Source: a virus
Lineage: Duplodnaviria; Heunggongvirae; Uroviricota; Caudoviricetes
Strand: one strand, 5' to 3'
Length of the DNA: 22,176 bases
Virus record (IMG/VR): IMGVR_UViG_2585427971_000007
Location: 1-22,176 of that record
Both the position numbers and the translations under genes were made by a program. Shown piece after piece: positions 1 to 12,920 of this stretch. Each line of letters begins with the position of its first letter. Position 1 is the stretch's first letter. The notes beneath the pieces are model-generated. The model was not told the origin of the DNA, did no database searches, and was given only the letters and a program-made list of their open reading frames with translations.

Positions 1-549
1 ATGCAATTTAATATCCCTACGTTGCTTACACTGTTCCGTGTCATCCTTATCCCATTCTTTGTATTGGTCTTTTATTTGCCTGTCACCTGGTCGCCGTTTG
101 CCGCCGCGCTCATTTTCTGCGTCGCGGCGGTGACTGACTGGTTCGATGGTTTTCTGGCACGCCGCTGGAATCAGAGTACCCGGTTTGGTGCTTTCCTTGA
201 CCCTGTCGCAGATAAAGTTCTCGTGGCTATCGCCATGGTGCTGGTAACCGAGCATTACCACAGCTGGTGGGTGACCTTACCGGCAGCAACGATGATCGCC
301 CGTGAAATTATTATTTCTGCGCTACGCGAATGGATGGCGGAGTTGGGTAAACGCAGTAGCGTGGCTGTCTCCTGGATTGGAAAAGTGAAAACCACTGCCC
401 AGATGGTGGCGTTGGCATGGCTGCTGTGGCGTCCGAATATTTGGGTTGAGTACGCCGGTATTGCACTTTTCTTTGTGGCTGCGGTACTGACTCTGTGGTC
501 AATGTTGCAATATTTGAGCGCTGCGCGTGCAGATTTGCTTGATCAGTGA
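1..549 (+). CDS. pgsA: CDP-diacylglycerol--glycerol-3-phosphate 3-phosphatidyltransferase (phosphatidylglycerophosphate synthase), complete 182 aa
   Basis: 182-aa ORF starting at nt 1 with a hydrophobic multi-pass membrane profile; sequence recognised from memory as E. coli PgsA; followed by the glyW-cysT-leuZ tRNA cluster as in E. coli. Confidence 0.93.
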
Positions 550-599
550 TCGTTTCGGCGCAATTTTCAGCAAACGATCAAAAGTGGTGAAAAATATCG

Positions 600-627
600 T
601 TGACTCATCGCGCCAGGTAAGTAGAAT
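600..627 (+). promoter_or_regulatory. sigma70-type promoter for the tRNA operon (TTGACT, 16-bp spacer, TAGAAT, GC-rich discriminator)
   Basis: TTGACT at 600-605 and TAGAAT at 622-627, about 75 bp upstream of the first tRNA. Confidence 0.55.
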
Positions 628-700
628 GCAACGCATCGAACGGCGGCACTGATTGCCAGACGATAATAAAATCAAGTGATTAACTGATTGCTTGATGAAT

Positions 701-776
<76 letters not shown>

Positions 777-829
777 GTTTAAAAGGCATCGGCGTCAGCG
801 GATGTCTGGCTGAAAGGCCTGAAGAATTT

Positions 830-903
830 GGCGCGTTAACAAAGCGGTTATGTAGCGGATTGCAAATCCGTCTAGTCCGGTTCGACTCCGGAACGCGCCT
901 CCA
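830..903 (+). tRNA. cysT: tRNA-Cys (anticodon GCA)
   Basis: 74-nt sequence ggcgcgttaacaaagcggttatgtagcggattgcaaatccg...ggttcgactccggaacgcgcctcca with GCA anticodon and CCA end. Confidence 0.92.
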
Positions 904-915
904 CTTTTTTCCCGA

Positions 916-1002
916 GCCCGGATGGTGGAATCGGTAGACACAAGGGATTTAAAATCCCTCGGCGTTCGCGCTGTGCGGGTTCAAGTCCCGCTCCGGGTAC
1001 CA
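916..1002 (+). tRNA. leuZ: tRNA-Leu (anticodon TAA), long variable arm
   Basis: 87-nt sequence gcccggatggtggaatcggtagacacaagggatttaaaatccctc...gggttcaagtcccgctccgggtacca; class II tRNA with TAA anticodon. Confidence 0.92.
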
Positions 1003-1043
1003 TGGGAAAGATAAGAATAAAATCAAAGCAATAAGCAGTGTCG

Positions 1044-1070
1044 TGAAACCACCTTCGGGTGGTTTTTTTG
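1044..1070 (+). terminator. rho-independent terminator of the tRNA operon (possibly bidirectional, also downstream of int)
   Basis: GC stem aaaccacc/ggtggttt with ttcg loop followed by a run of 7 T; A-rich on the 5' side. Confidence 0.8.
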
Positions 1071-1132
1071 TATCTTCTTTCTCATTTCCGAAGATGCGTC
1101 CGAAGATGATTTTTCTCTGGACGCATCATCAT

Positions 1133-2149
1133 TCATTTTCTCTGGCCACCAACTACGGGCACTACTTTAACTTTCCGGTCATATGCTGCTGTCTGTCGCG
1201 GGTTCTTATGCCCGGAAATTGCTTGCTTCTCTTCCAGGCTGCCTTCCAGATCAGAGATACCTTTTGCTTTCAGATCATGAAATGTGAAGTCTATTTGCAG
1301 ATGAGGATATTTTTCCTGTGCTGCCGCTTTGACATCACGCCAACGAGAGTTAAAACCATCACGGGTATACTTGCCACCGGTAGTTTGATGAATCACAAAC
1401 AGGCTACTGATTCCCGTTTTTAATGGCAGAGAACGAGCCAGAGCTATCGCTTTCTGCAGACGAGGCGACCAGGCTTTGATTTGCTTAACGCCGGTTTTTC
1501 CCTGACGAATGTAGATCCCGGAATCGAACAGCTGGTCTTTCTGCAATGAAAGTACATCACTCTGTCTGGCCACGCATAAGTAGGCAATCTCCATTGCTAC
1601 GCGAACAACATCAGGAGACACTTCATAAACGGCCTGATATTCTTCATCCGTAATATAACGTTCGCGAGCTTTCTCTTTAAACTGTTTAACTCCCTGACAA
1701 GGATTCCTCTGAACATAACCTCGTTCATAACCCCAACGGAATACCCGGGACATAAAGCTTTTTTCCCTGTTTGCCTGAGTTCGGCTTGATAAACCGCGTT
1801 GATCCATATAGCGCCGAATATGTTCAGGTTTGATTTTATCCGGGTCGATCTTCCCGAAGACAGGCAGAACTTTTCCGGAATATTTTGTGTAGTCTTTCCG
1901 GGTTTCGACTGCCAAATCCATAAAATCAGGGGAGGTCATGAATTGTTCCGTGAGCGCCTGAAAAGTATTTCTTTCTTTTTCGTCACCGACCGCTTTTTCA
2001 TATGCCAGCCATACGGCTGATCGTGGTGCATCCAATGCGCACAGGCGTATCGCTTTGTTATCTTTATTCCTGAATTCGTAGGCCGCTTTGCCCTGGTAAA
2101 CACGAGGCGGCATCCAGTTATCTGCTGGGTTCTTTCTCTTTCCGGCCAT
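1133..2149 (-). CDS. Tyrosine recombinase, lambda-family phage integrase
   Basis: ORF with N-terminal basic arm-binding-type region (MAGKRKNPADNWMPPRVY) and C-terminal catalytic motifs (GKTGVKQ, HDLKAKG, GHKNPRQTAAYDR with the Tyr); start set at the ATG at 2149 by analogy with lambda Int; the longer ORF runs to 2179. Confidence 0.9.
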   Translation of the reverse strand: MAGKRKNPADNWMPPRVYQGKAAYEFRNKDNKAIRLCALDAPRSAVWLAYEKAVGDEKERNTFQALTEQFMTSPDFMDLAVETRKDYTKYSGKVLPVFGKIDPDKIKPEHIRRYMDQRGLSSRTQANREKSFMSRVFRWGYERGYVQRNPCQGVKQFKEKARERYITDEEYQAVYEVSPDVVRVAMEIAYLCVARQSDVLSLQKDQLFDSGIYIRQGKTGVKQIKAWSPRLQKAIALARSLPLKTGISSLFVIHQTTGGKYTRDGFNSRWRDVKAAAQEKYPHLQIDFTFHDLKAKGISDLEGSLEEKQAISGHKNPRQTAAYDRKVKVVPVVGGQRK

Positions 2150-2381
2150 TAAATATTGCTCCAAAATCAGGTTCATCATCTTTTCGCGTCGTCACCTCCT
2201 GTAAATTGCGAAATTTTATTGGGTTCATGAAATGGCCCCAGGTTGTTTTTGGGTGTCCGTCAGCCCTTTCCATGAAGAAAATTCCAGCCCGGCGAAGAGC
2301 CTCACATTGCTTTGATTTAAGTGGGCTTCCCGTCAGCTCGACCATTTCTTCTCTGGTGATTATGTCGTGATCGCTTTTCAT
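2118..2381 (-). CDS. Excisionase-like small DNA-binding protein
   Basis: 87-aa ORF immediately upstream of and overlapping the integrase start; RBS GAGGAAAGACC directly before the ATG. Confidence 0.6.
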   Translation of the reverse strand: MKSDHDIITREEMVELTGSPLKSKQCEALRRAGIFFMERADGHPKTTWGHFMNPIKFRNLQEVTTRKDDEPDFGAIFNGRKEKEPSR

Positions 2382-2541
2382 GGTCTTTCCTCATTATGTA
2401 GCTTATTGCGTCATCTGCCTTCTGGCAGGCACGGGCAATATCAGACTCGGTCAAAGTCTGTTTCCTGACGCTGGCCGACAGTCGACCAATTTTGATATCA
2501 AATGCGGAGAGCAGAGTTGCTCCCGGTTGCCATCGCAGCAT
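2317..2541 (-). CDS. Hypothetical small protein (74 aa from the ATG at 2541), C-terminus overlaps the xis start in another frame
   Basis: ATG at 2541 preceded by a GGAGG Shine-Dalgarno; basic low-complexity C-terminal tail makes the call uncertain. Confidence 0.4.
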   Translation of the reverse strand: MLRWQPGATLLSAFDIKIGRLSASVRKQTLTESDIARACQKADDAISYIMRKDHEKRSRHNHQRRNGRADGKPT

Positions 2542-2590
2542 TGTGATCCTCCGGTGTCTGGTGAATCGCAATGCTAGCGATGGTGAGTTT

Positions 2591-2773
2591 TTATTTCTGA
2601 TTAGGCGTAATCAGTTCTTGTGGGGTGAATGCCGATTTCTCCCGAGTGACCTTAATGTTTTCTGGCAGGTGTAGCCCAAGTTCGCAGCGGCTCCGTGCTT
2701 CAATAATGCCATTGGTACCATCGGCAAGTACCAGGTGAACCGCGTCACCACGCTTTAATGTGAGTTTAAGCAT
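2591..2773 (-). CDS. Hypothetical small protein (60 aa)
   Basis: Start codon overlaps the stop of the upstream 189-aa gene (ATGA overlap), suggesting translational coupling. Confidence 0.5.
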   Translation of the reverse strand: MLKLTLKRGDAVHLVLADGTNGIIEARSRCELGLHLPENIKVTREKSAFTPQELITPNQK

Positions 2774-3342
2774 TAGCGTATCCTCAGTGACCGTTCGCCG
2801 CGTTCCAGATGTGCGCCTGGTACCGGGTTTAATAACTCGGCTGGTGGTGTTTCTCCACGCGCCAGTATTTCGGCGGCAACCGCCTCCGCAGATTCAATCA
2901 CTTCTTTAATGGCTCGCTTGTTTGGTGTAATAACCGTTTCTACATCAACAAGTGACACGCCCTCATACTCATCCGGGATCTTATCTTTGCTATCGATAAT
3001 TACCCGGATAGCCCCCTGTGCATCAGTAAATGTGTTTTTTGCGGTTTTCAGTTTATCCAGGCCAGCAGCTTGCAGGCAGGTGAGCATATGCTTTCGAATT
3101 GCTTTTTCCTTGCCTTCAAAGGACGTCTTACGGGTTGCCAGGCGAGACATTTCTTCAGCGCAGGTATTGGCATTGCCCTGTAAATTACGGCAGATGACCA
3201 TCATGGCGTCCAGTTTGTCTCCCAGTTCTCCTTCCATGCCTTCAAGCGTGTCGGCGATCATCTCTGGCGTCAGTTCATCGGCGGTTTCTAACAGGTCAAT
3301 CAGACTGGCATATTCTTTTGCAATAGCGATAGCAGTGCTCAT
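2773..3342 (-). CDS. Phage early protein, Gam / Gp157-like (putative host-nuclease inhibitor); family assignment tentative
   Basis: 189-aa acidic protein with coiled-coil-like N-terminus; AGGAG RBS; start overlaps the stop of the upstream annealase gene; resemblance to Mu Gam / siphovirus Gp157 judged from memory only. Confidence 0.55.
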   Translation of the reverse strand: MSTAIAIAKEYASLIDLLETADELTPEMIADTLEGMEGELGDKLDAMMVICRNLQGNANTCAEEMSRLATRKTSFEGKEKAIRKHMLTCLQAAGLDKLKTAKNTFTDAQGAIRVIIDSKDKIPDEYEGVSLVDVETVITPNKRAIKEVIESAEAVAAEILARGETPPAELLNPVPGAHLERGERSLRIR

Positions 3343-5555
3343 GCTGTTTGCTCCTGTGCAGCGGTAAGGGCGGCGAGGCGTTCAGTTTTAATGTCGGTGA
3401 TACGGCGCAGACGTGATCCCAGATACGATGAATATTCTTTATCGCCTTTGGTTTCCGCTGCTTTCCTGTGTACATCCACTTCGCGGGCGATGAGGCCAAA
3501 TACCTTGTTTACTTCGTTGGCGGTTACCGCGGCGGCCAGCGTATTGGCAACGTTGATAAGCTTCTCATCCAGTTCCTTACGCAGACGGGTAGCATCTTCC
3601 GCATTCTCGCTGGCATTCTTGATATCAAACTCAGCTTTATTCCTCTGGCGGTATTCCGGATTGTCGTACAGGCCCATGAAAATATCGGCGCTGAATCCGA
3701 GAGGGGATAGCGCTTTCTTAACAGCATCCGTCCAGGATTTCTTCGGTGCTTCGCCGTCGCTTGTTGGTCCGTATTTAGTGTCGTAGATATAAGGTGTGCA
3801 TCCGTAAGCCTCGGACTCACCGCGTACCCCATTCAATATGTACCAGACTCTCACTTTCATGGTGTGGTGCATTTCACATAGGTACCCGCCAACACCGTCT
3901 TGAATCAGATCCCATTCTATTTTTTCACCAACCTGTTTTTTGCGAACTATTGGTGCGCCTTTATCAAAGCGCTCCTCCAGCACCTCTACCCCCCAGCCAA
4001 TACCAAATGGCCCAAATTCGCGAGTCGCTTTCATCGCTATATAAGTGCCGTTGATGGATGTGCCGCCGCCATTCTGAGAGAAAGCACTGGTGAAGCGCTC
4101 ATCGGTTTTGAATACGTTCTTCCACAATGCCAGGTTATCCGTGTCATCTGAGTCCTTTAACTCCGTTTCGATAGCTGAGATTGCATTCTGCCGCTTGTGC
4201 TCTTCGGCATGGATCCGCTCAACCAGCGCGTCAACGTTCTGCACCAGATCCTTTACCTGCTCGCTAAGTTGTTCTTGTGGAGGAGTCTCTTCTGCCAGGG
4301 TAATAGCTGCAGGTTCCCTCTGTGATACGGCGTTATTTTCAGGTACGTCATACACATGGCGAGGCGTGACAAACTGCTCACGCAACTGCTGCAAACTACG
4401 TTCTCCAGCATTTGCAGCTTCGCTTTTTTCGCCCTGATTTGAGGGTGTTTCTGACATCATCCCATCAATTGAGAATCGTCCGCCGCCGTGGTTGGTGACT
4501 TTTACATCATCCTTGGGTGCTGCTTCCTTTGGCTTCTCTTCAACAGCATTTGCATCACGCTGCCCGTTAGCTTGCAGCCAGTTGTCGATGTGACTGCGCA
4601 GGGATTGTGGGAAGTGGTACGTGTCTTTTGCGGGGGCGCTCTGAATAACACCGAATACTGATGCGCGGTCATAGGCAAGGATCTGATCCGTTGTGCGCAA
4701 GGCCATTGACCAGCGTTTAAAATCTTCCCTGTCCTGACTGATTATTTCGTCTGCCGCTTTCAGGATGCTGGGGGTGATTTTTTCCGGGGCAACAGGTAAC
4801 AGGGCGCAGGCAATTTCACGATCCAGAGTGGCGTGAGTCTGTTTGTAAGGACGTGCGGATGCTGTTTCTGGTTTTACCTCCGGCAGCATTTCATCTCGTT
4901 TACCGGGATTCTCTACCCATTTTTTTATAAATTTGGAGATAGTCCAACTGGTCGGGTTTTGTTCCTGGGTATCGCAACTTGCCAAAATTGCATGTACCAG
5001 ATTATTCAATCCAGCAATATGCATGTACTCGATGGGCTTACACGCCACCATGGCATCAAGAACGATGCGGTTAAACGCGTCAACCTCATCCTCACTGTCA
5101 GTATCACTGTTATCGAGCATCTCCAGGTATTCACGCGTCTGCACAAGCAATTCACTGTCGACTTCGTTGGCGTCGTGGCTGAACAGCAGAACGGCGGCGA
5201 ATCGTTCACGAGCCGGCAGTTTCATCAGGTCGCTAACCTGTGAGATATCTGCTGAACTGCAATCTGAATCAACAGGAGTGTTAACTACCCATTTTTCGCC
5301 ATCAAAACTGTGTTCTGTGGCAAACGTCTCATCAAACTCACCGACGCCTGGGCGCGGTTGGCCCGGGGCATCTTCCCAGATTTTAGGTTTGAAATAGTTG
5401 TCGCCGTGGTCAGGGTAGGCTTCCCACAATTTGCCGATGATGATGTTCTCGGCAACTTTTTTGTTAGGGGCGGCGATGGCGATGGCCAGCGCCGGGATCG
5501 CGCCGTTTTTGAGCGCGCCTTTTTTCGCTTCTAACAAGCCGTTAAAAATGGTCAT
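3339..5555 (-). CDS. Large early protein: N-terminal ~470 aa of unknown function fused to a C-terminal Rad52/Sak-like single-strand annealing domain
   Basis: 738-aa ORF with RBS GAGGAAAGACC; residues ~490-635 carry Rad52-family hallmarks (GGG...FGPFGIGWG ... GESEAYG ... TDAVKKALSPLGFSADIFMGLYD). Confidence 0.75.
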   Translation of the reverse strand: MTIFNGLLEAKKGALKNGAIPALAIAIAAPNKKVAENIIIGKLWEAYPDHGDNYFKPKIWEDAPGQPRPGVGEFDETFATEHSFDGEKWVVNTPVDSDCSSADISQVSDLMKLPARERFAAVLLFSHDANEVDSELLVQTREYLEMLDNSDTDSEDEVDAFNRIVLDAMVACKPIEYMHIAGLNNLVHAILASCDTQEQNPTSWTISKFIKKWVENPGKRDEMLPEVKPETASARPYKQTHATLDREIACALLPVAPEKITPSILKAADEIISQDREDFKRWSMALRTTDQILAYDRASVFGVIQSAPAKDTYHFPQSLRSHIDNWLQANGQRDANAVEEKPKEAAPKDDVKVTNHGGGRFSIDGMMSETPSNQGEKSEAANAGERSLQQLREQFVTPRHVYDVPENNAVSQREPAAITLAEETPPQEQLSEQVKDLVQNVDALVERIHAEEHKRQNAISAIETELKDSDDTDNLALWKNVFKTDERFTSAFSQNGGGTSINGTYIAMKATREFGPFGIGWGVEVLEERFDKGAPIVRKKQVGEKIEWDLIQDGVGGYLCEMHHTMKVRVWYILNGVRGESEAYGCTPYIYDTKYGPTSDGEAPKKSWTDAVKKALSPLGFSADIFMGLYDNPEYRQRNKAEFDIKNASENAEDATRLRKELDEKLINVANTLAAAVTANEVNKVFGLIAREVDVHRKAAETKGDKEYSSYLGSRLRRITDIKTERLAALTAAQEQTA

Positions 5556-5585
5556 TGGTCTTTCCTCATTACAGGTCAGTGGTTT

Positions 5586-5906
5586 TTAGTAGGGGAGCTC
5601 ATCGGTATCTGGCGTGTATTCGATGCAAAGTAACTGCTGGATTTTGTCATCGATAGCAGCAATACGCTGTTGGGCGTCGGCGACTGTTTTCTGTTTTTGT
5701 TCACGCAGTTGCTCGACCTGTAAACCGATGATGTCGATTGGCTCGGGCTGGTTAACGGTAATTTCAATTTCGCGGCTTTCCAGAAGGATGTACCTGTCTG
5801 GAAAATTTTTTGACATATCAACAGTCGCAACAAGCAGCTTTTCGTGGCTGAAAGTTGAAGTTGCATAATGAATAAAGAGTGTTACTGGGATGGTGCGCGC
5901 TTCCAT
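5586..5906 (-). CDS. Hypothetical phage early protein (106 aa)
   Basis: ATG preceded by an AAGGAG RBS; first gene of the leftward early operon. Confidence 0.6.
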   Translation of the reverse strand: MEARTIPVTLFIHYATSTFSHEKLLVATVDMSKNFPDRYILLESREIEITVNQPEPIDIIGLQVEQLREQKQKTVADAQQRIAAIDDKIQQLLCIEYTPDTDELPY

Positions 5907-6759
5907 AGCGACTCCTTGGTAATGTATACTCAGAGCCGATCAGCGAATATTGATCAGCTTCCATAGCGTCAGTGTCGTTGGTCTTTCCTCATCACAAGTT
6001 TGGTCACTTGTGATAAATCCGAATGGTTTGGTCGCCGTTCGGGGTAACTGGCCCGCCTTGTGCGGGTCTTTTGCTATCTAAAGGGTGCCGGTTACGTTTC
6101 CGGCGTCGTTATGTTTCCATTACGACCGTACAGGGCTGGTCAGGCCCGGGCTGGTCTTTCCTGTTTTGAGCTGGTCAGGCTCATGGTCAACGCTGGTCAG
6201 GCGTGGTACTTCCTCCGGTCTTTCCCTGGTGTCACGCTGCGGGTTTGGCCTCTCCTGTTGGGGACTCAGGCACAGCGATAAAACCTGGCTGTGTGAAAAA
6301 ATGGCCCATCGTGCGGACTGGGCAAAGACTAAACACAGCAAATTGATGATGGGCGCCCGGAATCGAACCGGGTAACGGGCAGGGAGTTCCCGTTAAACAC
6401 CTGTTCACCACAACCGGGAGCGCACTCCGCCATTTCAAAATTTAACGACAAAGCTCAAAGTTGAGTCGATGAAGTGCGCTCTCGTGTTGTAGCCAGGACT
6501 CTTCCCTGGTGGTCACACCGTATCGCCTTGATGGTGAATCAATCGCTCATACCTGGCTGTGGCTTGCACATTCCGGCTACCTGCTATGGAGACAACGCGT
6601 TAAGGCTCCGCTTCCATCCAGACCGCTTCGACACATGTGCCATATGCCGGTGAAGTCTTTCCCTCTGTCACCGTGTTGGCGCCGACGCGCAAAATTTGGT
6701 GCCGTCTTTCCGGCTGTCAGAACGTGTTTCTGAACAACTGCCGCTGGGTAAGCGTTGTT

Positions 6760-6870
6760 GATGAAAGTGACTTTACAATTTGTATTTGTAATGGTCAATG
6801 TGTTTTTAAAAAATAATTTGTAGTGAGGGGCAAAAAAATATTCACTGTGTAAAGGTGTTTTTGTGTTAGG
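6760..6870. promoter_or_regulatory. AT-rich putative OL/pL-type operator-promoter region downstream of the repressor gene
   Basis: Repeated TTTGTA(A/T) motifs (caatttgtatttgtaatgg, aataatttgtagtgagg) resembling those between the repressor and cro genes. Confidence 0.4.
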
Positions 6871-6995
6871 GGAAAGTTGCATGCCAGCAGCGGCTGGCCT
6901 GGAAATTTGAACTGAACTATTTTGTCTGGTTTTTGGCTTCAAGTAGTTCTTTTAGCAGTAGATCGAAGTGCTCTCTTTTTCTTTTAGCTCATTGA

Positions 6996-7328
6996 TTAAT
7001 TTATTTTTTCGCTCTCAGGCAGTCCTCTGAATAGTTGCAGTAGAGCCTGTTCTTGCGGGGTTAGTTCTTGATTGTAATTACCCGGGTGTAGTGTGGATTC
7101 ATCCAAATATTCCCCTTCATTCATGAAGAAAAAATGAACAGGGTATCCGGTCACTTTTGCTAGCTTGTCTAATTTATCTTTTCTTGGAGTTACCCCATTA
7201 CACCATGCCTGAACTGATTGAGCCGTAACCCCAATATGGCGAGCTAACTCAGATTGAGACCAGCCTAAGTCTTTTAGAATCCGTTGTAGTCGGCTAGCAA
7301 AAGCCATGTTTTTCGTTTTTGTGTTCAT
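6996..7328 (-). CDS. Phage repressor, short XRE-family helix-turn-helix protein with no peptidase domain
   Basis: HTH signature WSQSELARHIGVTAQSVQAWCNG; divergent from a Cro-like gene; start uncertain (alternatives at 7343 TTG, 7328 ATG, 7307 ATG). Confidence 0.8.
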   Translation of the reverse strand: MNTKTKNMAFASRLQRILKDLGWSQSELARHIGVTAQSVQAWCNGVTPRKDKLDKLAKVTGYPVHFFFMNEGEYLDESTLHPGNYNQELTPQEQALLQLFRGLPESEKIN

Positions 7329-7343
7329 ACCGTAAGGATACAA

Positions 7344-7426
7344 GGTTTAATTGTAGGGAGCATTGCAAATATAATTTGTAATTACAGTTATTGTTTGTAA
7401 TGATGACGCGGACACAAGGAGTCCAT
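7344..7426. promoter_or_regulatory. Divergent promoter/operator region of the immunity switch
   Basis: Intergenic region between divergent repressor and cro genes with repeated TTTGTAAT motifs (aatttgtaattacag, ttgtttgtaatgatg) and TTGCAA -35-like hexamer. Confidence 0.55.
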
Positions 7427-7657
7427 ATGGATAAACAACTGCAAGACAAAATTCTTTCCGTAATGAGTCAATCCGAGTTAGGGCGGCGATTAGGGAAAAA
7501 ACCACAAACGGTAAGCCTCTGGTTCAAAGGACGGGTTCCCGGTGAAGAGGTTTTGCGCACATCTGAAGCTCTTGAATGGCGCGTGACCCCTCATGATCTT
7601 AGACCGGATCTTTACCCAAACCCAGATGACAGCTTGCCTAAAACGGAAGCAGCTTAA
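7427..7657 (+). CDS. Cro/Apl-like HTH regulator (76 aa from the ATG at 7427)
   Basis: AAGGAG RBS 5 nt upstream of the ATG; HTH motif SQSELGRRLGKKPQTVSLWFKG; divergent from the repressor. Confidence 0.8.
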   Translation: MDKQLQDKILSVMSQSELGRRLGKKPQTVSLWFKGRVPGEEVLRTSEALEWRVTPHDLRPDLYPNPDDSLPKTEAA

Positions 7658-7715
7658 CTGTTGGTGAGCCCCAAATCTGATTAAGCGTAATCAATTTTTA
7701 GCGACAGGAGACGCT

Positions 7716-8192
7716 ATGGAAAACCAAGAGGAATTACAAAAAGAGATTTTGACCTGGGCGGCAAGGGCAGGGCAGGAACTCGTCACGATTGAAATCTGCC
7801 GGGCCTGGTTCAGTCAGGGACGCAATGATGAGTTGAGACTACATGAATTTGAGGACGCGGACGGCAACGTGGACTGGAGAGCCATCAACAACAATCGGCA
7901 GAAAATCTTTCGCTGGTTACGTGGCGAGACAACGGCGGCGCGCCGAAAAACTCAGGTGCTGGCCAGTGTGATGAAAGCCGTGCTACCCGCAGAACGGCGG
8001 GCACGTCTGGAGTCGCCGGGCGATCCCGTTTTGCTGGCAACGCTGGCGGCAAAAGAAGGGGTGGAAGCGATTAACGCTGTACATCTCCACTTCGCGCCAG
8101 AGTTAACTATTCAGGAAATTGACGAAGCAATAGCGGCGCTGGTAGCGACGCGAGGAGCAGTGATACGCACTGCGCAAGACCACCATGCATGA
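7716..8192 (+). CDS. Phage regulatory protein, CII-like / YdaT-like (tentative)
   Basis: 158-aa ORF with AGGAG RBS directly downstream of cro; functional call rests on position in the switch operon only. Confidence 0.45.
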   Translation: MENQEELQKEILTWAARAGQELVTIEICRAWFSQGRNDELRLHEFEDADGNVDWRAINNNRQKIFRWLRGETTAARRKTQVLASVMKAVLPAERRARLESPGDPVLLATLAAKEGVEAINAVHLHFAPELTIQEIDEAIAALVATRGAVIRTAQDHHA

Positions 8193-8231
8193 GCGCCTGA
8201 CCAGCGTTTAACTTATACCGAGGAAAGACCG

Positions 8232-8456
8232 ATGTTAAGACATATTGACCGCATTACCTGGCGTAACGGCTGGCACCTGAATGGACGCCCGGCACATGTT
8301 GCAGAGATCCGCCCCATATTCGATGGCCGCGTCGCAGCTGCACGTTCTGTATGGGAAAAGTACGAAGAAGAAAAAGCGAAACTGCGTGAGCAAAATCTCT
8401 CTGGCGCTGCCTATGAGGCTGGCTGTCGCGTTCTCTCAGAGGCTTTGGGCATATGA
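8232..8456 (+). CDS. Hypothetical protein (74 aa)
   Basis: ATG preceded by GAGGAAAGACC RBS; last gene of the rightward early operon before the convergent junction. Confidence 0.5.
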   Translation: MLRHIDRITWRNGWHLNGRPAHVAEIRPIFDGRVAAARSVWEKYEEEKAKLREQNLSGAAYEAGCRVLSEALGI

Positions 8457-8597
8457 ACATCCTCCCGTTACTTGATAGACCCATAGCCTTCCAGAGAAGT
8501 TTTATCCGTCTTGAAATGGTGATGCGCCGCGCGATAAATGCACTCTATCTTGTGCGATAAATGGCATCCACGCGGCGTTTCATTATTTGAAAAAGAA

Positions 8598-9170
8598 TTA
8601 CATTTCAGGTTGCGTTATGACAGTCCCAACAGGGTGATAGCGGTAGATCGTTGACAGTCCAATATCATAGATAATTGCCAGCCGCTTTCTGTCATACCCT
8701 TTCTGGAGCAATCTTGCGATCTGCTCATGCTGCTCCTTCGTCAGTTTCGGGCGACGTCCTCCAACTCTTCCTTGTGCTCGCGCAGCAGCCAGTCCTGCCA
8801 GCGTGCGCTCAACTATCAGTTCACGCTCCATTTCTGCCAGTGCACCCATCATATGAAAAAAGAACCTTCCCATCGGAGTGCTGGTATCGATTGAATCCGT
8901 CAGACTGCGAAAATTGACACCTTTTGCGCGTAGCTCTTCTGTGAGAGCAATGAGGTGTTTCATTCTTCTACCCAACCGATCCAGCTTCCAGACCACCAAT
9001 GTATCCCCTCTTTTAAGGCACTTTAAAGCGCGTTTCAGGCCTGGTCGTTCCGACTTGGTTCCGCTCATTTTGTCCTCAAAAATCTGTTCACATCCTGCGC
9101 ACATTAATGCATTGCGTTGCAAATCTGTGTTTTGGTCATTTGTTGACACACGTATGTAGCCAATCAGCAT
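8598..9170 (-). CDS. Serine DNA invertase, Pin/Gin/Hin/Cin family (190 aa)
   Basis: N-terminus MLIGYIRVSTNDQNTDLQRNAL with catalytic Ser and a C-terminal HTH; AAGGGAG RBS; lies adjacent to the invertible fibre segment; start set at the internal ATG at 9170 rather than the longer ORF to 9299. Confidence 0.92.
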   Translation of the reverse strand: MLIGYIRVSTNDQNTDLQRNALMCAGCEQIFEDKMSGTKSERPGLKRALKCLKRGDTLVVWKLDRLGRRMKHLIALTEELRAKGVNFRSLTDSIDTSTPMGRFFFHMMGALAEMERELIVERTLAGLAAARAQGRVGGRRPKLTKEQHEQIARLLQKGYDRKRLAIIYDIGLSTIYRYHPVGTVITQPEM

Positions 9171-9226
9171 TAAAAATACTCCCTTTTGAGTGGTTAAAGT
9201 ACTGAGATAATGTGGGGAGGATTTGA

Positions 9227-9252
9227 GAGATAAACGTTGGTTTGGGGGAAGG
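9227..9252. promoter_or_regulatory. Putative invertase crossover site, left (gix/hix-like)
   Basis: Junction where inverted-repeat identity begins; reverse complement reads tcccccAAACCAAcgtttatctctc, resembling Din-family sites (AAACC..GGTTT). Confidence 0.5.
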
Positions 9253-9436
9253 CTCTGCACTGCCTGTTGGTGTGCCTGTTCCATGGCCCACCGCCACACC
9301 GCCAGCAGGCTGGTTAAAGTGCGACGGGCGCGCCTTTACAAAAGAACAATATCCTGTTCTGGCCAGAGTCTACCCGACCCTCCGTCTTCCCGATTTACGC
9401 GGTGAGTTTATCCGTGGATGGGACGACGGGCGCAAG
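9237..9436. repeat. Inverted repeat, left copy (~200 bp, 3 mismatches in the first 50 bp, otherwise identical) encoding the shared part of the fibre C-terminus
   Basis: Direct comparison with the reverse complement of 10656-10852. Confidence 0.9.
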
Positions 9437-9715
9437 ATTGACGAGGGGCGTAAGTTGCTTTCATGGCAGAAAGGTACACTGGTCGGCGGTCATGACGATA
9501 ACGATTCTTCGCTTGATATCTCGTACATGAGTAACGGAAATAATATTGACTATGGCGGCGATAAGGTGTTTGCGGGGAATTACCGTAGCGATTATTTGTG
9601 GTACGTAATTCTGGGAGGAACAAACAGTCGCGCAAAAGCCGAATTAAACGGAGCATTCTTTAACATAACCCGCCCCCGCAATATCGCGTTTAACTATATC
9701 GTGAGGGCGGCGTGA
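9242..9715 (+). CDS. Alternative tail-fibre C-terminal cassette (promoterless, silent in this orientation)
   Basis: First ~62 aa identical to the corresponding part of the expressed fibre (GEGSALPVGVPVPWPTATPPAGWLKCDGRAF...), then divergent; ends with the conserved NYIVRA motif; opposite strand to the fibre. Confidence 0.8.
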   Translation: MGEGSALPVGVPVPWPTATPPAGWLKCDGRAFTKEQYPVLARVYPTLRLPDLRGEFIRGWDDGRKIDEGRKLLSWQKGTLVGGHDDNDSSLDISYMSNGNNIDYGGDKVFAGNYRSDYLWYVILGGTNSRAKAELNGAFFNITRPRNIAFNYIVRAA

Positions 9716-9721
9716 TACCGT

Positions 9722-10336
9722 TCAACTGGCAAGTGCCAGTGGCGCTTCCGGCCAGCTGATTTCAGGTGCCGTGCTGATATCCAGTGCGTTCAGCTCGTCG
9801 ATATAATCCAGCACGGCGTTCAGTTTTGCCGTTTCTTCTGGTGTCAGACTGCGACCAGCACGCAGTTTGAGGTTGATAAGATCGACTGACGCCATCGCCT
9901 GTTTCACCCGTTGCTGGCGTTGCTGTCTGGCAACCTCCAGTTCTGCGGCTCGCTGCCGTTCAGTATCGGTTACCCACGCCTCACCGTTCCAGGTATCCCA
10001 TGGCGTGGCTGGCTGTTTTGTGGTGGTGTCCGCCGGGTAATCACCCGGTTGGGTAATCAGAACAGGGTTACCGTTCTCCGTGCTGTATACCGTCTCGCCG
10101 CGGTGATCAGGCACATGCTCCCACCCGTTCAGCGTGGCAGTCCGGCAAACCACGTAACCCGAAATTGCCTCCGGCGGTGCATCGGCGCACGAATGTGCCG
10201 GAGTACCCACCCCAAGGGCGAGATACTCCACAGAGGATGAGGTGTATTCCCGGGTTTCCTCGTCATAGTGATATACAGTGATATCGCCCGCTACAGTGGC
10301 GATACCGTTTTCATCCAGAACTGCAGTGTTACTCAT
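9722..10336 (-). CDS. Tail fibre assembly protein (P2 gpG / Mu U-like)
   Basis: 204-aa ORF whose start overlaps the fibre stop (TAATG); position and composition typical of assembly chaperones. Confidence 0.8.
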   Translation of the reverse strand: MSNTAVLDENGIATVAGDITVYHYDEETREYTSSSVEYLALGVGTPAHSCADAPPEAISGYVVCRTATLNGWEHVPDHRGETVYSTENGNPVLITQPGDYPADTTTKQPATPWDTWNGEAWVTDTERQRAAELEVARQQRQQRVKQAMASVDLINLKLRAGRSLTPEETAKLNAVLDYIDELNALDISTAPEISWPEAPLALAS

Positions 10337-12345
10337 TAAACTGCCCTCACAATGTAATTAAGTGCAATGCTACGGGGTCTGACAGTGATACCCTTCGCAT
10401 ACCCGCTTCTGATAGAGGTCAGAATAGTAGCCTGCATACCATTGTCTGACATTGCCACGACAGGATCGCTGAATGTTGTCCCGTCCGGCATTTTAAAGCT
10501 GCCCTCACGAAGGTCTGTAATGGAATCTTCATTGTTGAATCCCATGCCGACTATCCCCGAGGTTCCCGTAGTGTCCTGGTTATAATAATCCAGCATTGCT
10601 GTTCTTAACAGCGTTGCCCCTTGTGCGGACAGCAACTTACGTCCTGTATCAACTTTGCGCCCGTCGTCCCATCCACGGATAAACTCACCGCGTAAATCGG
10701 GAAGACGGAGGGTCGGGTAGACTCTGGCCAGAACAGGATATTGTTCTTTTGTAAAGGCGCGCCCGTCGCACTTTAACCAGCCTGCTGGCGGTGTGGCGGT
10801 GGGCCATGGAACCGGTACACCAACAGGCAATGCAGAGCCTTCCCCCAAACCAAGGTAATTGAGGACATCTTTTATACTGCCCTTAGCGATAATAGCGCGA
10901 CCAATAGCTGTAAGGGTTGCCAGCGCTGCGCGGTCTGCTCCGGTAAAATAAGGCAACCGATCTGCTGCAGTGGCAAGTCCTGCCAGAGCAGTGAGCGTGG
11001 CATCTGCCGGTTGTTTTCCGTTTGCCAGATCGTATGCAGCCTTGACCGCTTTCGGTGTGGCGGCCAGTATTTCAGACGTGCTGTTGATAGCACTGCTCAG
11101 TTGTACGGTGCCTTTTGCCGTCAGCGAGGCAGCAGGCACTCCCGTTATCTGACTCCACGGGTGAGTGTGGCTGACGGGCGCCTTGCCGGCTGCAAGGTCG
11201 TATGCAGCCTTGACCGCCTTCGGCGTGGCAGCCTCAATTTCTGATTGACTGTCCGTGGCGCTGCTCAGTTGTACGGTGCCTTTTGCCGTCAGTGAAGCCG
11301 CAGGCACTCCCGTTATCTGACTCCACGGGTGAGTGTGGCTGGCAGGCGCCTTGCCGGCTGCCAGGTCGTATGCAGCCTTGACCGCTTTCGGTGTGGCGGC
11401 CAGTATTTCAGACGTGCTGTTGATGGCACTGCTCAGTTGTACGGTGCCTTTTGCCGTCAGCGAGGCAGCTGGCACTCCCGTTATCTGACTCCACGGGTGA
11501 GTGTGGCTGACGGGCGCCTTGCCGGCTGCAAGGTCGTATGCAGCCTTGACCGCCTTCGGCGTGGCAGCCTCAATTTCTGATTGACTGTCCGTGGCGCTGC
11601 TCAGTTGTACGGTGCCTTTTGCCGTCAGTGAAGCCGCAGGCACTCCCGTTATCTGACTCCACGGGTGAGTGTGGCTGGCAGGCGCCTTGCCGGCTGCCAG
11701 GTCGTATGCAGCCTTGACCGCTTTCGGTGTGGCGGCCAGTATTTCAGACGTGCTGTTGATGGCACTGCTCAGTTGTACGGTGCCTTTTGCCGTCAGCGAG
11801 GCAGCTGGCACTCCCGTTATCTGACTCCACGGGTGAGTGTGGCTGACGGGCGCCTTGCCGGCTGCAAGGTCGTATGCAGCCTTGACCGCCTTCGGCGTGG
11901 CAGCCTCAGTTTCTGATTGACTGTCCGTGGCGCTGCTCAGTTGTACGGTGCCTTTTGCCGTCAGTGAAGCCGCAGGCACTCCCGTTATCTGACTCCACGG
12001 GTGAGTGTGGCTGGCAGGCGCCTTGCCGGCTGCCAGGTCGTATGCAGCCTTGACCGCTTTTGGTGTGGCGGCCAGCGTTTCAGAGGTGCTGTTGGTGGCA
12101 CTGCTCAGTTGGGTGAACCCCTTAGCTGTCAGTGTCGCGTCCGGGTGGTTACGGGAACGTACGTGTTCAGCCAGTGACTGTGCGGCTTCCTCCGTTTTCT
12201 TCTTCAGCCATTTCGTCCTGTTTGCCAGTTGCCGGGGGGCTCGATTTGATATCCCGTCTGCACCACCCAGAACCGGATCTGATGTCTCCAGTTGATAGAT
12301 ATTTTCTTCCCACTTTTCTGTTTCATTCAGGTTTCCCATAATCAA
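10336..12345 (-). CDS. Tail fibre protein (P2 gpH-like), C-terminus lying in the invertible segment
   Basis: 669-aa ORF; N-terminus and the motif HPDATLTAKGFTQLSSATNSTSETLAATPKAVKA recalled from P2 gpH-type fibres; internal tandem repeats. Confidence 0.9.
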   Translation of the reverse strand: MIMGNLNETEKWEENIYQLETSDPVLGGADGISNRAPRQLANRTKWLKKKTEEAAQSLAEHVRSRNHPDATLTAKGFTQLSSATNSTSETLAATPKAVKAAYDLAAGKAPASHTHPWSQITGVPAASLTAKGTVQLSSATDSQSETEAATPKAVKAAYDLAAGKAPVSHTHPWSQITGVPAASLTAKGTVQLSSAINSTSEILAATPKAVKAAYDLAAGKAPASHTHPWSQITGVPAASLTAKGTVQLSSATDSQSEIEAATPKAVKAAYDLAAGKAPVSHTHPWSQITGVPAASLTAKGTVQLSSAINSTSEILAATPKAVKAAYDLAAGKAPASHTHPWSQITGVPAASLTAKGTVQLSSATDSQSEIEAATPKAVKAAYDLAAGKAPVSHTHPWSQITGVPAASLTAKGTVQLSSAINSTSEILAATPKAVKAAYDLANGKQPADATLTALAGLATAADRLPYFTGADRAALATLTAIGRAIIAKGSIKDVLNYLGLGEGSALPVGVPVPWPTATPPAGWLKCDGRAFTKEQYPVLARVYPTLRLPDLRGEFIRGWDDGRKVDTGRKLLSAQGATLLRTAMLDYYNQDTTGTSGIVGMGFNNEDSITDLREGSFKMPDGTTFSDPVVAMSDNGMQATILTSIRSGYAKGITVRPRSIALNYIVRAV
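10656..10852. repeat. Inverted repeat, right copy (partner of 9237-9436)
   Basis: Reverse complement matches 9237-9436. Confidence 0.9.
10841..10866. promoter_or_regulatory. Putative invertase crossover site, right (gix/hix-like)
   Basis: tcccccAAACCAAGGTaattgagga at the boundary between the constant fibre region and the inverted repeat. Confidence 0.5.
11010..12140. repeat. Tandem array inside the fibre gene: ~6.7 copies of a 168-bp (56-aa) unit in two alternating variants (336-bp super-period)
   Basis: Protein repeats ASLTAKGTVQLSSA..ATPKAVKAAYDLAAGKAP(A/V)SHTHPWSQITGVP; plus-strand shadow ORFs recur every 336 bp with identical sequence. Confidence 0.9.
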
Positions 12346-12920
12346 CTGCTCCCGTGGTTATAACTGCCATCATGGATGGCGGTATTGTTATAGCGAATGG
12401 CCACAGACTGATACTCCAGGCTGGCCAGATGGCAGCGGGCCGGTGCAAATGCAGCCAGCGTCTGACGCAGCATCGCGGCCTGATCGTTAGTAATGGGCTG
12501 TTTCAGAATAACGCGATAAACTGCCCAGGCGGCTGCATCTCCATGAACAAACAGTCCGTTATAGCTGCGATTGCCGTCGTAACTGAGACGACCTGTGCCT
12601 TCAATCAGATCCACTTCACCAAAGCCAAAACGGCGGATAACTTCCCGGATTGACCACGGCGTCCCTTTATACCGGTGCAGTTCGATGGCTGCTTTTATAA
12701 GCATGCGGCGAACATCGTCCGATTCCGCCAGCTCCCAGCCATCGCCAGACAGTGAGAACTGCTCGCCCAGCCATGGCAGCGCAGAACTGTCGACGATATC
12801 GACGAGAAAGACCATCAGTACGCTCAGGTCGATGTTATCCAGCCGTCCTGCCAGTCTTCCCAGCGTCCTGAGACTGATATCACCCTCAAGCGGTGGCGGG
12901 AGTTGTAATGGCTCAGTCAT
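12342..12920 (-). CDS. Baseplate/tail protein, P2 gpI-like
   Basis: 192-aa ORF overlapping the fibre start; motif LPWLGEQFSL...KGTPWSIREVIRRFG; synteny V-W-J-I-H-G. Confidence 0.8.
   Translation of the reverse strand: MTEPLQLPPPLEGDISLRTLGRLAGRLDNIDLSVLMVFLVDIVDSSALPWLGEQFSLSGDGWELAESDDVRRMLIKAAIELHRYKGTPWSIREVIRRFGFGEVDLIEGTGRLSYDGNRSYNGLFVHGDAAAWAVYRVILKQPITNDQAAMLRQTLAAFAPARCHLASLEYQSVAIRYNNTAIHDGSYNHGSS

Follow-up and report, generated by a model that had tools for sequence, protein, structure and literature searches.

How does a phage that switches its tail-fibre tip by DNA inversion fold the alternative tip when its invertible segment carries a single assembly gene? The question is raised by the 22,176-nucleotide (nt) stretch analysed here, positions 1-22,176 of the IMG/VR virus record IMGVR_UViG_2585427971_000007 (the window, to which coordinates refer unless another locus is named), in which a serine DNA invertase gene, gin, adjoins an invertible segment (9238-10852) made up of three genes: tip A, in frame with the fibre gene; tfa, coding for a tail-fibre assembly protein; and a silent tip, C. 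The first-pass annotation of this DNA had proposed that the segment holds one assembly gene, that this gene is convergent with the silent cassette and that after inversion the alternative tip would be left without a chaperone gene in cis. All three points proved correct, the last of them in naturally inverted copies of the locus (IAI39 and AVS0969). Moreover, the single tfa turned out to be the conserved, standard layout of this prophage family in Escherichia coli, in versions with two, three and six tips. The fibre locus comprises the following features, with protein lengths in amino acids (aa).

8598-9170, minus strand: serine DNA invertase of the Gin/Pin type, 190 aa (Resolvase PF00239, E=8e-51; HTH_7 PF02796, E=1e-12)
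9226-9251: left crossover site, core TT at 9237-9238, read from the sequence and 1 base off the e14 P-segment repeat TTGGTTTGGGAGAAGG
9234-9462: left inverted-repeat arm, encoding the collar of tip C
9242-9715, plus strand: silent tip C, 157 aa (Collar PF07484, E=1.2e-15), with a collar, a variable insert and the C-terminal RPRNIAFNYIVRAA
9716-9721: 6-nt spacer between the convergent stops of tip C and tfa, read from the sequence
9722-10336, minus strand: tfa, sole tail-fibre assembly gene, 204 aa (Caudo_TAP PF02413, E=3.5e-28)
10336-10853, minus strand: tip A, fused in frame to the constant fibre part, its stop codon overlapping the tfa ATG
10336-12345, minus strand: tail-fibre gene, 669 aa, with seven Phage_fiber_2 repeats and a C-terminal Collar domain
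10628-10856: right inverted-repeat arm, encoding the collar of tip A
10839-10864: right crossover site, core at 10852-10853
10854-12345, minus strand: constant fibre part, outside the segment (Phage_fiber_2, E=5.7e-123)
12342-12920, minus strand: baseplate protein of the P2 gpI type (Tail_P2_I, E=1.2e-24), directly upstream of the fibre gene

The segment ends in a 229-nt inverted repeat whose arms (9234-9462 and 10628-10856) are 95% complementary. Within them lie the only two matches of the window to the 16-nt site CTTCCCCCAAACCAA(C/G), which face in opposite directions (9236-9251 and 10839-10854), where 0.36 matches with up to 3 mismatches would be expected by chance. Each crossover site resembles the gix/hix type, AAAC(G/C)TTGGTTTGG, and the two TT/AA cores, at 9237-9238 and 10852-10853, are inverted with respect to each other, which is the two-site arrangement of the Gin, Hin, Pin and Cin systems. 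Searching the window with the 16-nt pattern revealed no extra crossover site that would allow C to be re-oriented with respect to tfa. With its two sites the window thus contains a simple switch and not a shufflon, which has three or more sites and more than two isomers; p15B Min has been grouped with the tail-fibre shufflons, from which the window differs in having only two sites.

The 204-aa Tfa combines an N-domain (about residues 1-124) with a Caudo_TAP match at residues 79-199, and its start codon overlaps the stop of tip A; length, Caudo_TAP domain and a place directly 3' of a collar tip are those of the lambda Tfa/T4 gp38 type. Its sequence identity is 32% with lambda Tfa and 57-62% with the nearest phage homologues, which include those of P2-like and lambdoid phages, and the gene has its own Shine-Dalgarno sequence, GAGGG, 7 nt ahead of the ATG. 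A second assembly-like open reading frame (ORF), which would have overturned the initial claim, was not found: tblastn of the 22-kb window with both Tfa domains and with a second type of tfa returned the known gene as the single match, and in the complete IAI39 prophage one tfa is annotated and none was present elsewhere in that copy. Because the stops of C and tfa converge 6 nt apart, there is no space between them for another gene; equally, since gin is the terminal gene of the prophage, there is no room beyond it for a hidden second tfa. The N-terminus of the invertase reads MLIGYIRVSTNDQ; the six prophage copies whose annotation was read all list it as one identical protein, WP_000904922.1.

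Inversion of the segment in silico produced an in-frame fusion of the constant fibre part with tip C. Natural counterparts of both states were counted among 5,426 complete E. coli genomes with junction-specific queries, at a coverage of at least 80%.

Junction of the constant part with A: 282 genomes
Junction of the constant part with C: 81 genomes
Junction of the constant part with B (a third tip, from relatives): 74 genomes

In both C-fused copies examined, those of IAI39 and AVS0969, the annotated order was fibre (+), tfa (-), A cassette (-), gin (+), so that tfa lay antisense to the fibre operon. One and the same insertion in irp2 was found in three isomers (the fused tip is A in AVS0754, C in AVS0969 and B in Eco889, where A and a sense-oriented tfa come behind it), indicating that the switch had operated recently. 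These data established that inversion swaps a C-terminal tip of about 170 aa, that both orientations exist in nature and that the C-fused state has no chaperone gene in cis. In all cases tfa stays linked to the 3' side of tip A and tail to tail with tip C.

Comparison with homologous segments of related prophages revealed that the arrangement is not confined to the window. Relatives with three tips (locus L002) have an additional cassette, B (167 aa), located between gin and C, together with a third site. Enumeration of their isomers gave four states: tfa is in sense when A is fused and antisense when C is fused, and with B fused it is antisense if C comes next and in sense if A comes next. 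Locus L010, from this prophage family, combines six collar tips and six sites with one tfa, which is antisense to the fibre gene in the sequenced state. The tail-to-tail junction (cassette stop, 5-6 nt, tfa stop) is common to the window, L001, L010/L011 and L016, and the Tfa proteins of these other loci are only 56-72% identical to that of the window. In every lineage examined the tail-to-tail cassette is an intact ORF, and its insert type differs, being C here and others in L001, L010 and L016. Furthermore, about 600 genomes carry this tfa at an identity of at least 95%. In every version of the segment one cassette (C here) shares a site-free stretch with tfa, is convergent with it and is never co-oriented. 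The view of the single tfa as a local anomaly could therefore not be upheld, given that the same junction recurs in 2-, 3- and 6-tip versions.

The collar of the window C cassette matches, at positions 9260, 9274 and 9277, cassette B of the 3-tip relatives and not their C. Because C carries these B-type variants, the 2-tip form probably derives from the 3-tip form through the deletion of 514 bp between the directly repeated collars of these two cassettes. The 2-tip copy of SCU-101 has other collar variants, suggesting independent deletions or gene conversion. Reduction has gone further in E. coli LC-1302-2020 (L082, 1944-4569), where a fibre gene of the constant part-B type is followed directly by the invertase and A, tfa and C have all been lost.

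In Erwinia aphidicola (L009), a member of the same family with the same gpW, J and I genes, the same site and gin at its end, the segment is paired: gin is followed by a C-like tip with a tfa and then by a tfa with a tip. The order of baseplate, fibre and gin genes, the crossover site and the C-like invertase-proximal tip are shared with the window; there, however, a separate tfa accompanies each tip. The C-like insert and C share 56% identity, and the two tfa genes overlap tail to tail, with N-domains that are 64% identical. Paired collar/collar forms were also found in Xenorhabdus, Citrobacter and Erwinia tracheiphila, and in the commoner P2-like forms a collar tip with this type of Tfa is paired with an unrelated tip and an unrelated tfa. 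Deletion of a second assembly gene, one of the explanations offered by the first-pass annotation, fits the Erwinia aphidicola form, in which the C-like tip keeps a tfa of its own; the loss itself we infer, because this and the other relatives retain the paired form, and the simplest history would be that the invertase-proximal tfa was lost in the E. coli lineage.

In phages Mu and P1 the invertible segments carry two tfa genes, one behind each tip (U and U'). Likewise, e14 has one behind each of its tips (stfP-tfaP and tfaE-stfE), whereas in the window the second tip is not followed by an assembly gene of its own: its two tips share one structural class, and just the 6-nt spacer separates the second from the 3' end of the only tfa. 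Otherwise the window has in common with Mu G/gin, P1 C/cin and e14 P/pinE a serine invertase adjoining a segment in the 3' part of the fibre gene, a constant N-terminal fibre part with alternating C-terminal tips, and crossover within the coding sequence at ...GLGE... codons, at a site 1 base off that of e14, TTGGTTTGGGAGAAGG (PMC12529663). The invertase is the terminal gene in Mu-like genomes as well. In e14 (L076, 4640-4690), phage pro483 and Klebsiella phage Kp4845-2 (L007, L004), a short, conserved ATG leader ORF (MMPF/V...IFINVGLGE) starts about 29 bp from the invertase start; this leader is outside the crossover site, and the invertase-proximal cassette is consequently a complete gene in these three elements.

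The 3-tip relatives have the same three-site, four-isomer topology as was demonstrated by experiment for the prophage shufflon of enteropathogenic E. coli E2348/69 (Goldberg 2014, PMC4272514), and this topology predicts equilibrium tip frequencies of 50/25/25, as measured for FRphi of Enterobacter (PMC13418256). Up to six tips are known in FRphi and its relatives (PMC13418256), and a 6-tip relative of the window likewise exists. Tail-fibre shufflons are thus already known; the sharing of a single assembly gene and the orientation problem that goes with it are not discussed in the literature searched (PMC4272514, PMC13418256).

Tip A matched the tip of T4 gp37 (2XGF, E=1.6e-14), including the extreme C-terminal NIAFNYIVR, as well as a short tail fibre (9CUY, E=5.8e-16), and the Collar domain PF07484 was found in both A and C, so that both are collar tips of the gp37/Stf type. 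A set of 60 homologous cassettes showed little or no variation in the collar and over the final 14 residues, R144-R155 being invariant, and free variation in between. The gp37-gp38 module of T4 and the Stf-Tfa module of lambda are built in the same way: a variable insert that sets specificity lies between conserved flanks, and the assembly protein, of 184-207 aa, is conserved as well (Magaziner and Salmond 2022, PMC9659904). In those modules the assembly gene is reported to be always directly downstream (PMC9659904), whereas here the silent cassettes, one in the window and up to five in relatives, are without any. Tips of the gp37 type need gp38 or Tfa (PMC9659904), and lambda Tfa can substitute for T4 gp38 in gp37 folding (Montag 1989, as cited in PMC9659904).

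Over seven loci, the Tfa N-domain (about 124 aa) was 54-85% identical while the cognate tip inserts were 5-43% identical, and between Kp4845-2 and pro483 the two Tfa domains were 85% and 97% identical, with inserts only 22% identical. Moreover, 64 of the 69 matches to the Tfa N-domain in 62 GTDB loci lay directly behind a Collar tip. From these comparisons, Tfa appears to recognise the constant scaffold and not the insert. All tips of one shufflon share an identical scaffold because the scaffold doubles as the recombination repeat; and since the tips are of one structural class and Tfa does not co-vary with the insert, one generalist chaperone is plausibly enough, biochemically, for all of them. 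That a single chaperone serves both tips, which the first-pass annotation had named as a finding that would tell against its reading, thereby gained indirect support.

The C-type tip itself, judging from its substitution pattern, is a functional protein under purifying selection. The C-type insert of the window differs from its L010 allele by 44 synonymous and 25 non-synonymous changes; synonymous sites are saturated, and the proportion of non-synonymous differences is about 0.13. Within the window-type lineage there were 2-5 substitutions, too few for an informative ratio of non-synonymous to synonymous rates. An AlphaFold2 monomer model of tip C, built with the 60 cassette homologues, had a mean predicted local distance difference test score of 51, too low to be of use, and a sequence search of the PDB with Tfa gave chance matches only.

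Taken as a whole, the explanation that we favour, and hold with moderate confidence, is that of a segment reduced to a single tfa, in which the loss was tolerated owing to a generalist Tfa that is supplied in trans when C is fused. The tfa next to the invertase would have been lost, and the loss would have been tolerated because this class of Tfa acts on the collar and the C-terminal strand common to all tips and would therefore fold every one of them. In the 3- and 6-tip forms, an A-tfa-C module flanked by inverted sites could flip alone, so that other cassettes would be read with tfa in sense; in Eco889, B is indeed fused while tfa lies in sense. The puzzle then becomes narrow, the supply of Tfa in the C-fused state being a matter of expression and not of specificity. 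Our best guess for that state is that Tfa would still reach the fibre in trans, and two sources may be considered: a weak transcript from the invertase side, running through the A cassette into tfa with its own ribosome-binding site, and sister genome copies that flip during replication. Given its own Shine-Dalgarno sequence, tfa would be translated from any such gin-side transcript. Expression from the invertase side has a precedent in e14, where inversion leads to production of the pin-proximal chimeric StfE2 (PMC12529663).

Several observations weigh against a supply in trans. A search for sigma-70 consensus promoters on both strands of 8400-11000 found 0 sites, with 2.5 expected by chance; the sole candidate, a weak extended -10 (TGaGATAAT) noticed by eye at 9203-9211, shared no convincing motif with the spacer of the 6-tip form, and we claim no promoter. 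The spacer between gin and the site is not conserved, the window type differing from the 6-tip type, and an in-frame TGA occupies 9224-9226 where e14 and the P2-like relatives have their ATG leader ORF. Mu G inversion is slow, which means that sister copies may supply little Tfa. The median number of places per genome where a tfa of this family is detectable in the DNA is 1, and co-resident prophages are consequently not a reliable source. Some copies are moreover decaying, as seen in the internal stops of the IAI39 prophage and in the one genome without any tfa in the prophage. Finally, the assembly gene has been described as 'always directly downstream' in the wider receptor-binding protein family (PMC9659904), a position that hints that linkage in cis matters.

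In the main rival explanation, the C-fused state is chaperone-less and poorly productive or non-productive, Tfa being essential and made from the late operon alone. Copies with C fused, or with B fused and tfa antisense, would release particles whose fibres are unfolded or absent, and the roughly half of isomers that would be unproductive are simply tolerated. The tail-to-tail cassette would then be kept mainly as a carrier of the crossover site for the flipping of A-tfa, through which other cassettes come into use, and the 2-tip form would come close to an ON/OFF switch. We regard this as a real possibility, albeit not a probable one. Consistent with it, tfa was antisense in every C-fused copy examined, with no other tfa in the prophage and no promoter found for it, and isomer enumeration never placed C in the same orientation as tfa, whereas B can be so placed, as the Eco889 copy shows. 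The appearance of the 2-tip form as a 514-bp deletion derivative of the 3-tip form also fits, as does the finding that, of three locked tip states of the FRphi shufflon, only one infected (PMC13418256), a result which its authors ascribe to receptor use, chaperone orientation not being considered (PMC13418256). Nevertheless, the tail-to-tail ORF has stayed intact in all lineages examined while its insert types turned over, which is unexpected for a cassette that can never be used; C-type inserts are under purifying selection, even though the L010 allele in that comparison is not at the tail-to-tail position; and a crossover site needs about 26 bp, not an ORF of 474 nt.

It is unlikely, in our judgement, that tfa was placed inside invertible DNA on purpose, with inversion setting both the tip and whether the chaperone is made, and with C as a programmed chaperone-less state. 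Such a state could yield particles that are fibre-less or differently assembled, and the chaperone-less tip could serve the lysogen and not the virion, for instance by receptor blocking, by analogy with what has been reported for the e14 inversion product StfE2. If it were real, all experiments with locked shufflons would contain an unrecognised variable, the orientation of the chaperone gene.

Still less credit is due to the idea that tip C folds without this Tfa, be it alone, with host chaperones or with the tfa of a co-resident prophage. Tfa does work across phages, as the folding of T4 gp37 by lambda Tfa indicates (PMC9659904); some relative of this tfa, such as tfaE of e14, is carried by 2,633 of the 5,426 E. 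coli genomes; and one genome keeps a fibre gene of the constant part-B type with no tfa left in the prophage. That genome, however, is a single case and probably a defective remnant, and at a median of one detectable tfa place per genome any help from other prophages would require their co-induction. The C type is not special either, given that C-type inserts also occur away from the tail-to-tail position (second cassette of L010), the C-like tip of Erwinia has its own tfa directly downstream, and tips of the gp37 type are known to need gp38 or Tfa (PMC9659904). Least credible of all is that the single tfa reflects recent, local degeneration of a dying prophage, a deletion of no wider meaning. 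Some copies do contain pseudogenes, and deletions within the locus do occur; but lineages whose Tfa proteins diverge by 28-44% have the same layout and junction, as do 2-, 3- and 6-tip versions, tfa is found at 95% identity or more in about 600 genomes, and the invertase, tfa and all cassettes are intact in a locus whose inversion is evidently active.

If one Tfa folds many unrelated inserts on a shared collar scaffold, as our preferred explanation of a generalist chaperone would have it, this scaffold could be a chassis for host-range engineering of phages and tailocins, ready to take up new tips that bring no matching chaperone with them. In natural shufflons, some half of the isomers place the sole assembly gene antisense, and host-range tests with locked states, such as those of FRphi, can confuse the absence of a receptor with the absence of a folded fibre. 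ORFs of 150-170 aa annotated as 'phage tail protein' in Enterobacterales are silent tip cassettes and not independent genes, and prophage comparisons should record the isomer state.

Fibre length is a further variable of the locus. The constant part contains 6.5 copies of a 168-nt (56-aa) tandem unit at 11023-12111, with a 336-nt super-period that is 98% identical, and among genomes that share a tip the fibre varies in length, with 654 aa in AVS0969 against 686 aa in IAI39.

The element that bears the fibre locus is a Mu/BcepMu-like transposable prophage. It has the marks of such elements, namely a defined end of the kind that begins with TG, unrelated insertion sites and, as the IAI39 copy shows, genes of the transposase A/B and Mor types. 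Five copies from different genomes aligned perfectly up to position 8520 and were unrelated beyond it, their flanks differing: irp2, dgcM/smrA, lom of a lambdoid prophage and, in the window, the YdaS/YdaT region of another prophage. The copy of IAI39 (L075), of about 37 kb, encodes Mor, Gam, an ExeA-family (MuB-like) protein and a transposase A-like protein that contains an integrase catalytic domain. It also has lysis, head and Mu-order tail genes, the fibre gene, a single tfa and, at the very end, gin. This copy splits lom of a lambdoid prophage (2839-3012 and 39896-40330 of L075), and internal stops in three of its genes, among them the gpW/gp25 baseplate gene, indicate that some copies in the census are defective.

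A long-read inversion case of Milman et al. 2023, in a prophage with SmrA, MFS and phytase genes, was considered as a possible instance of this E. coli element and rejected, as it matches a locus of Dickeya solani (L079/L080). In that locus, collar-tip cassettes and an invertase flank a cargo block (phytase-like, MFS transporter, Smr), and it appears to be the inversion that was confirmed there by long reads.

The remainder of the window to the left, 1-8519, lies outside the fibre-bearing phage and corresponds to the early region of a lambdoid/Rac-like prophage, whose features, with the prophage end that adjoins them, are listed below.

1133-2179: integrase of the left neighbour prophage
2773-3342: Gp157 of the left neighbour prophage
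6996-7343: CI-like gene of the left neighbour prophage
7391-7657: YdaS of the left neighbour prophage
7716-8192: YdaT of the left neighbour prophage
8520-8597: right end of the Mu/BcepMu-like transposable prophage, beginning TGATGCGCCGCGCGATAAATGCAC, a motif that occurs once in the window

The same neighbour has a 738-aa ORF on the minus strand (3339-5555) that had no Pfam match, and the Mu-like prophage is inserted just past an ORF of 74 aa (8232-8456) that is oriented towards it.

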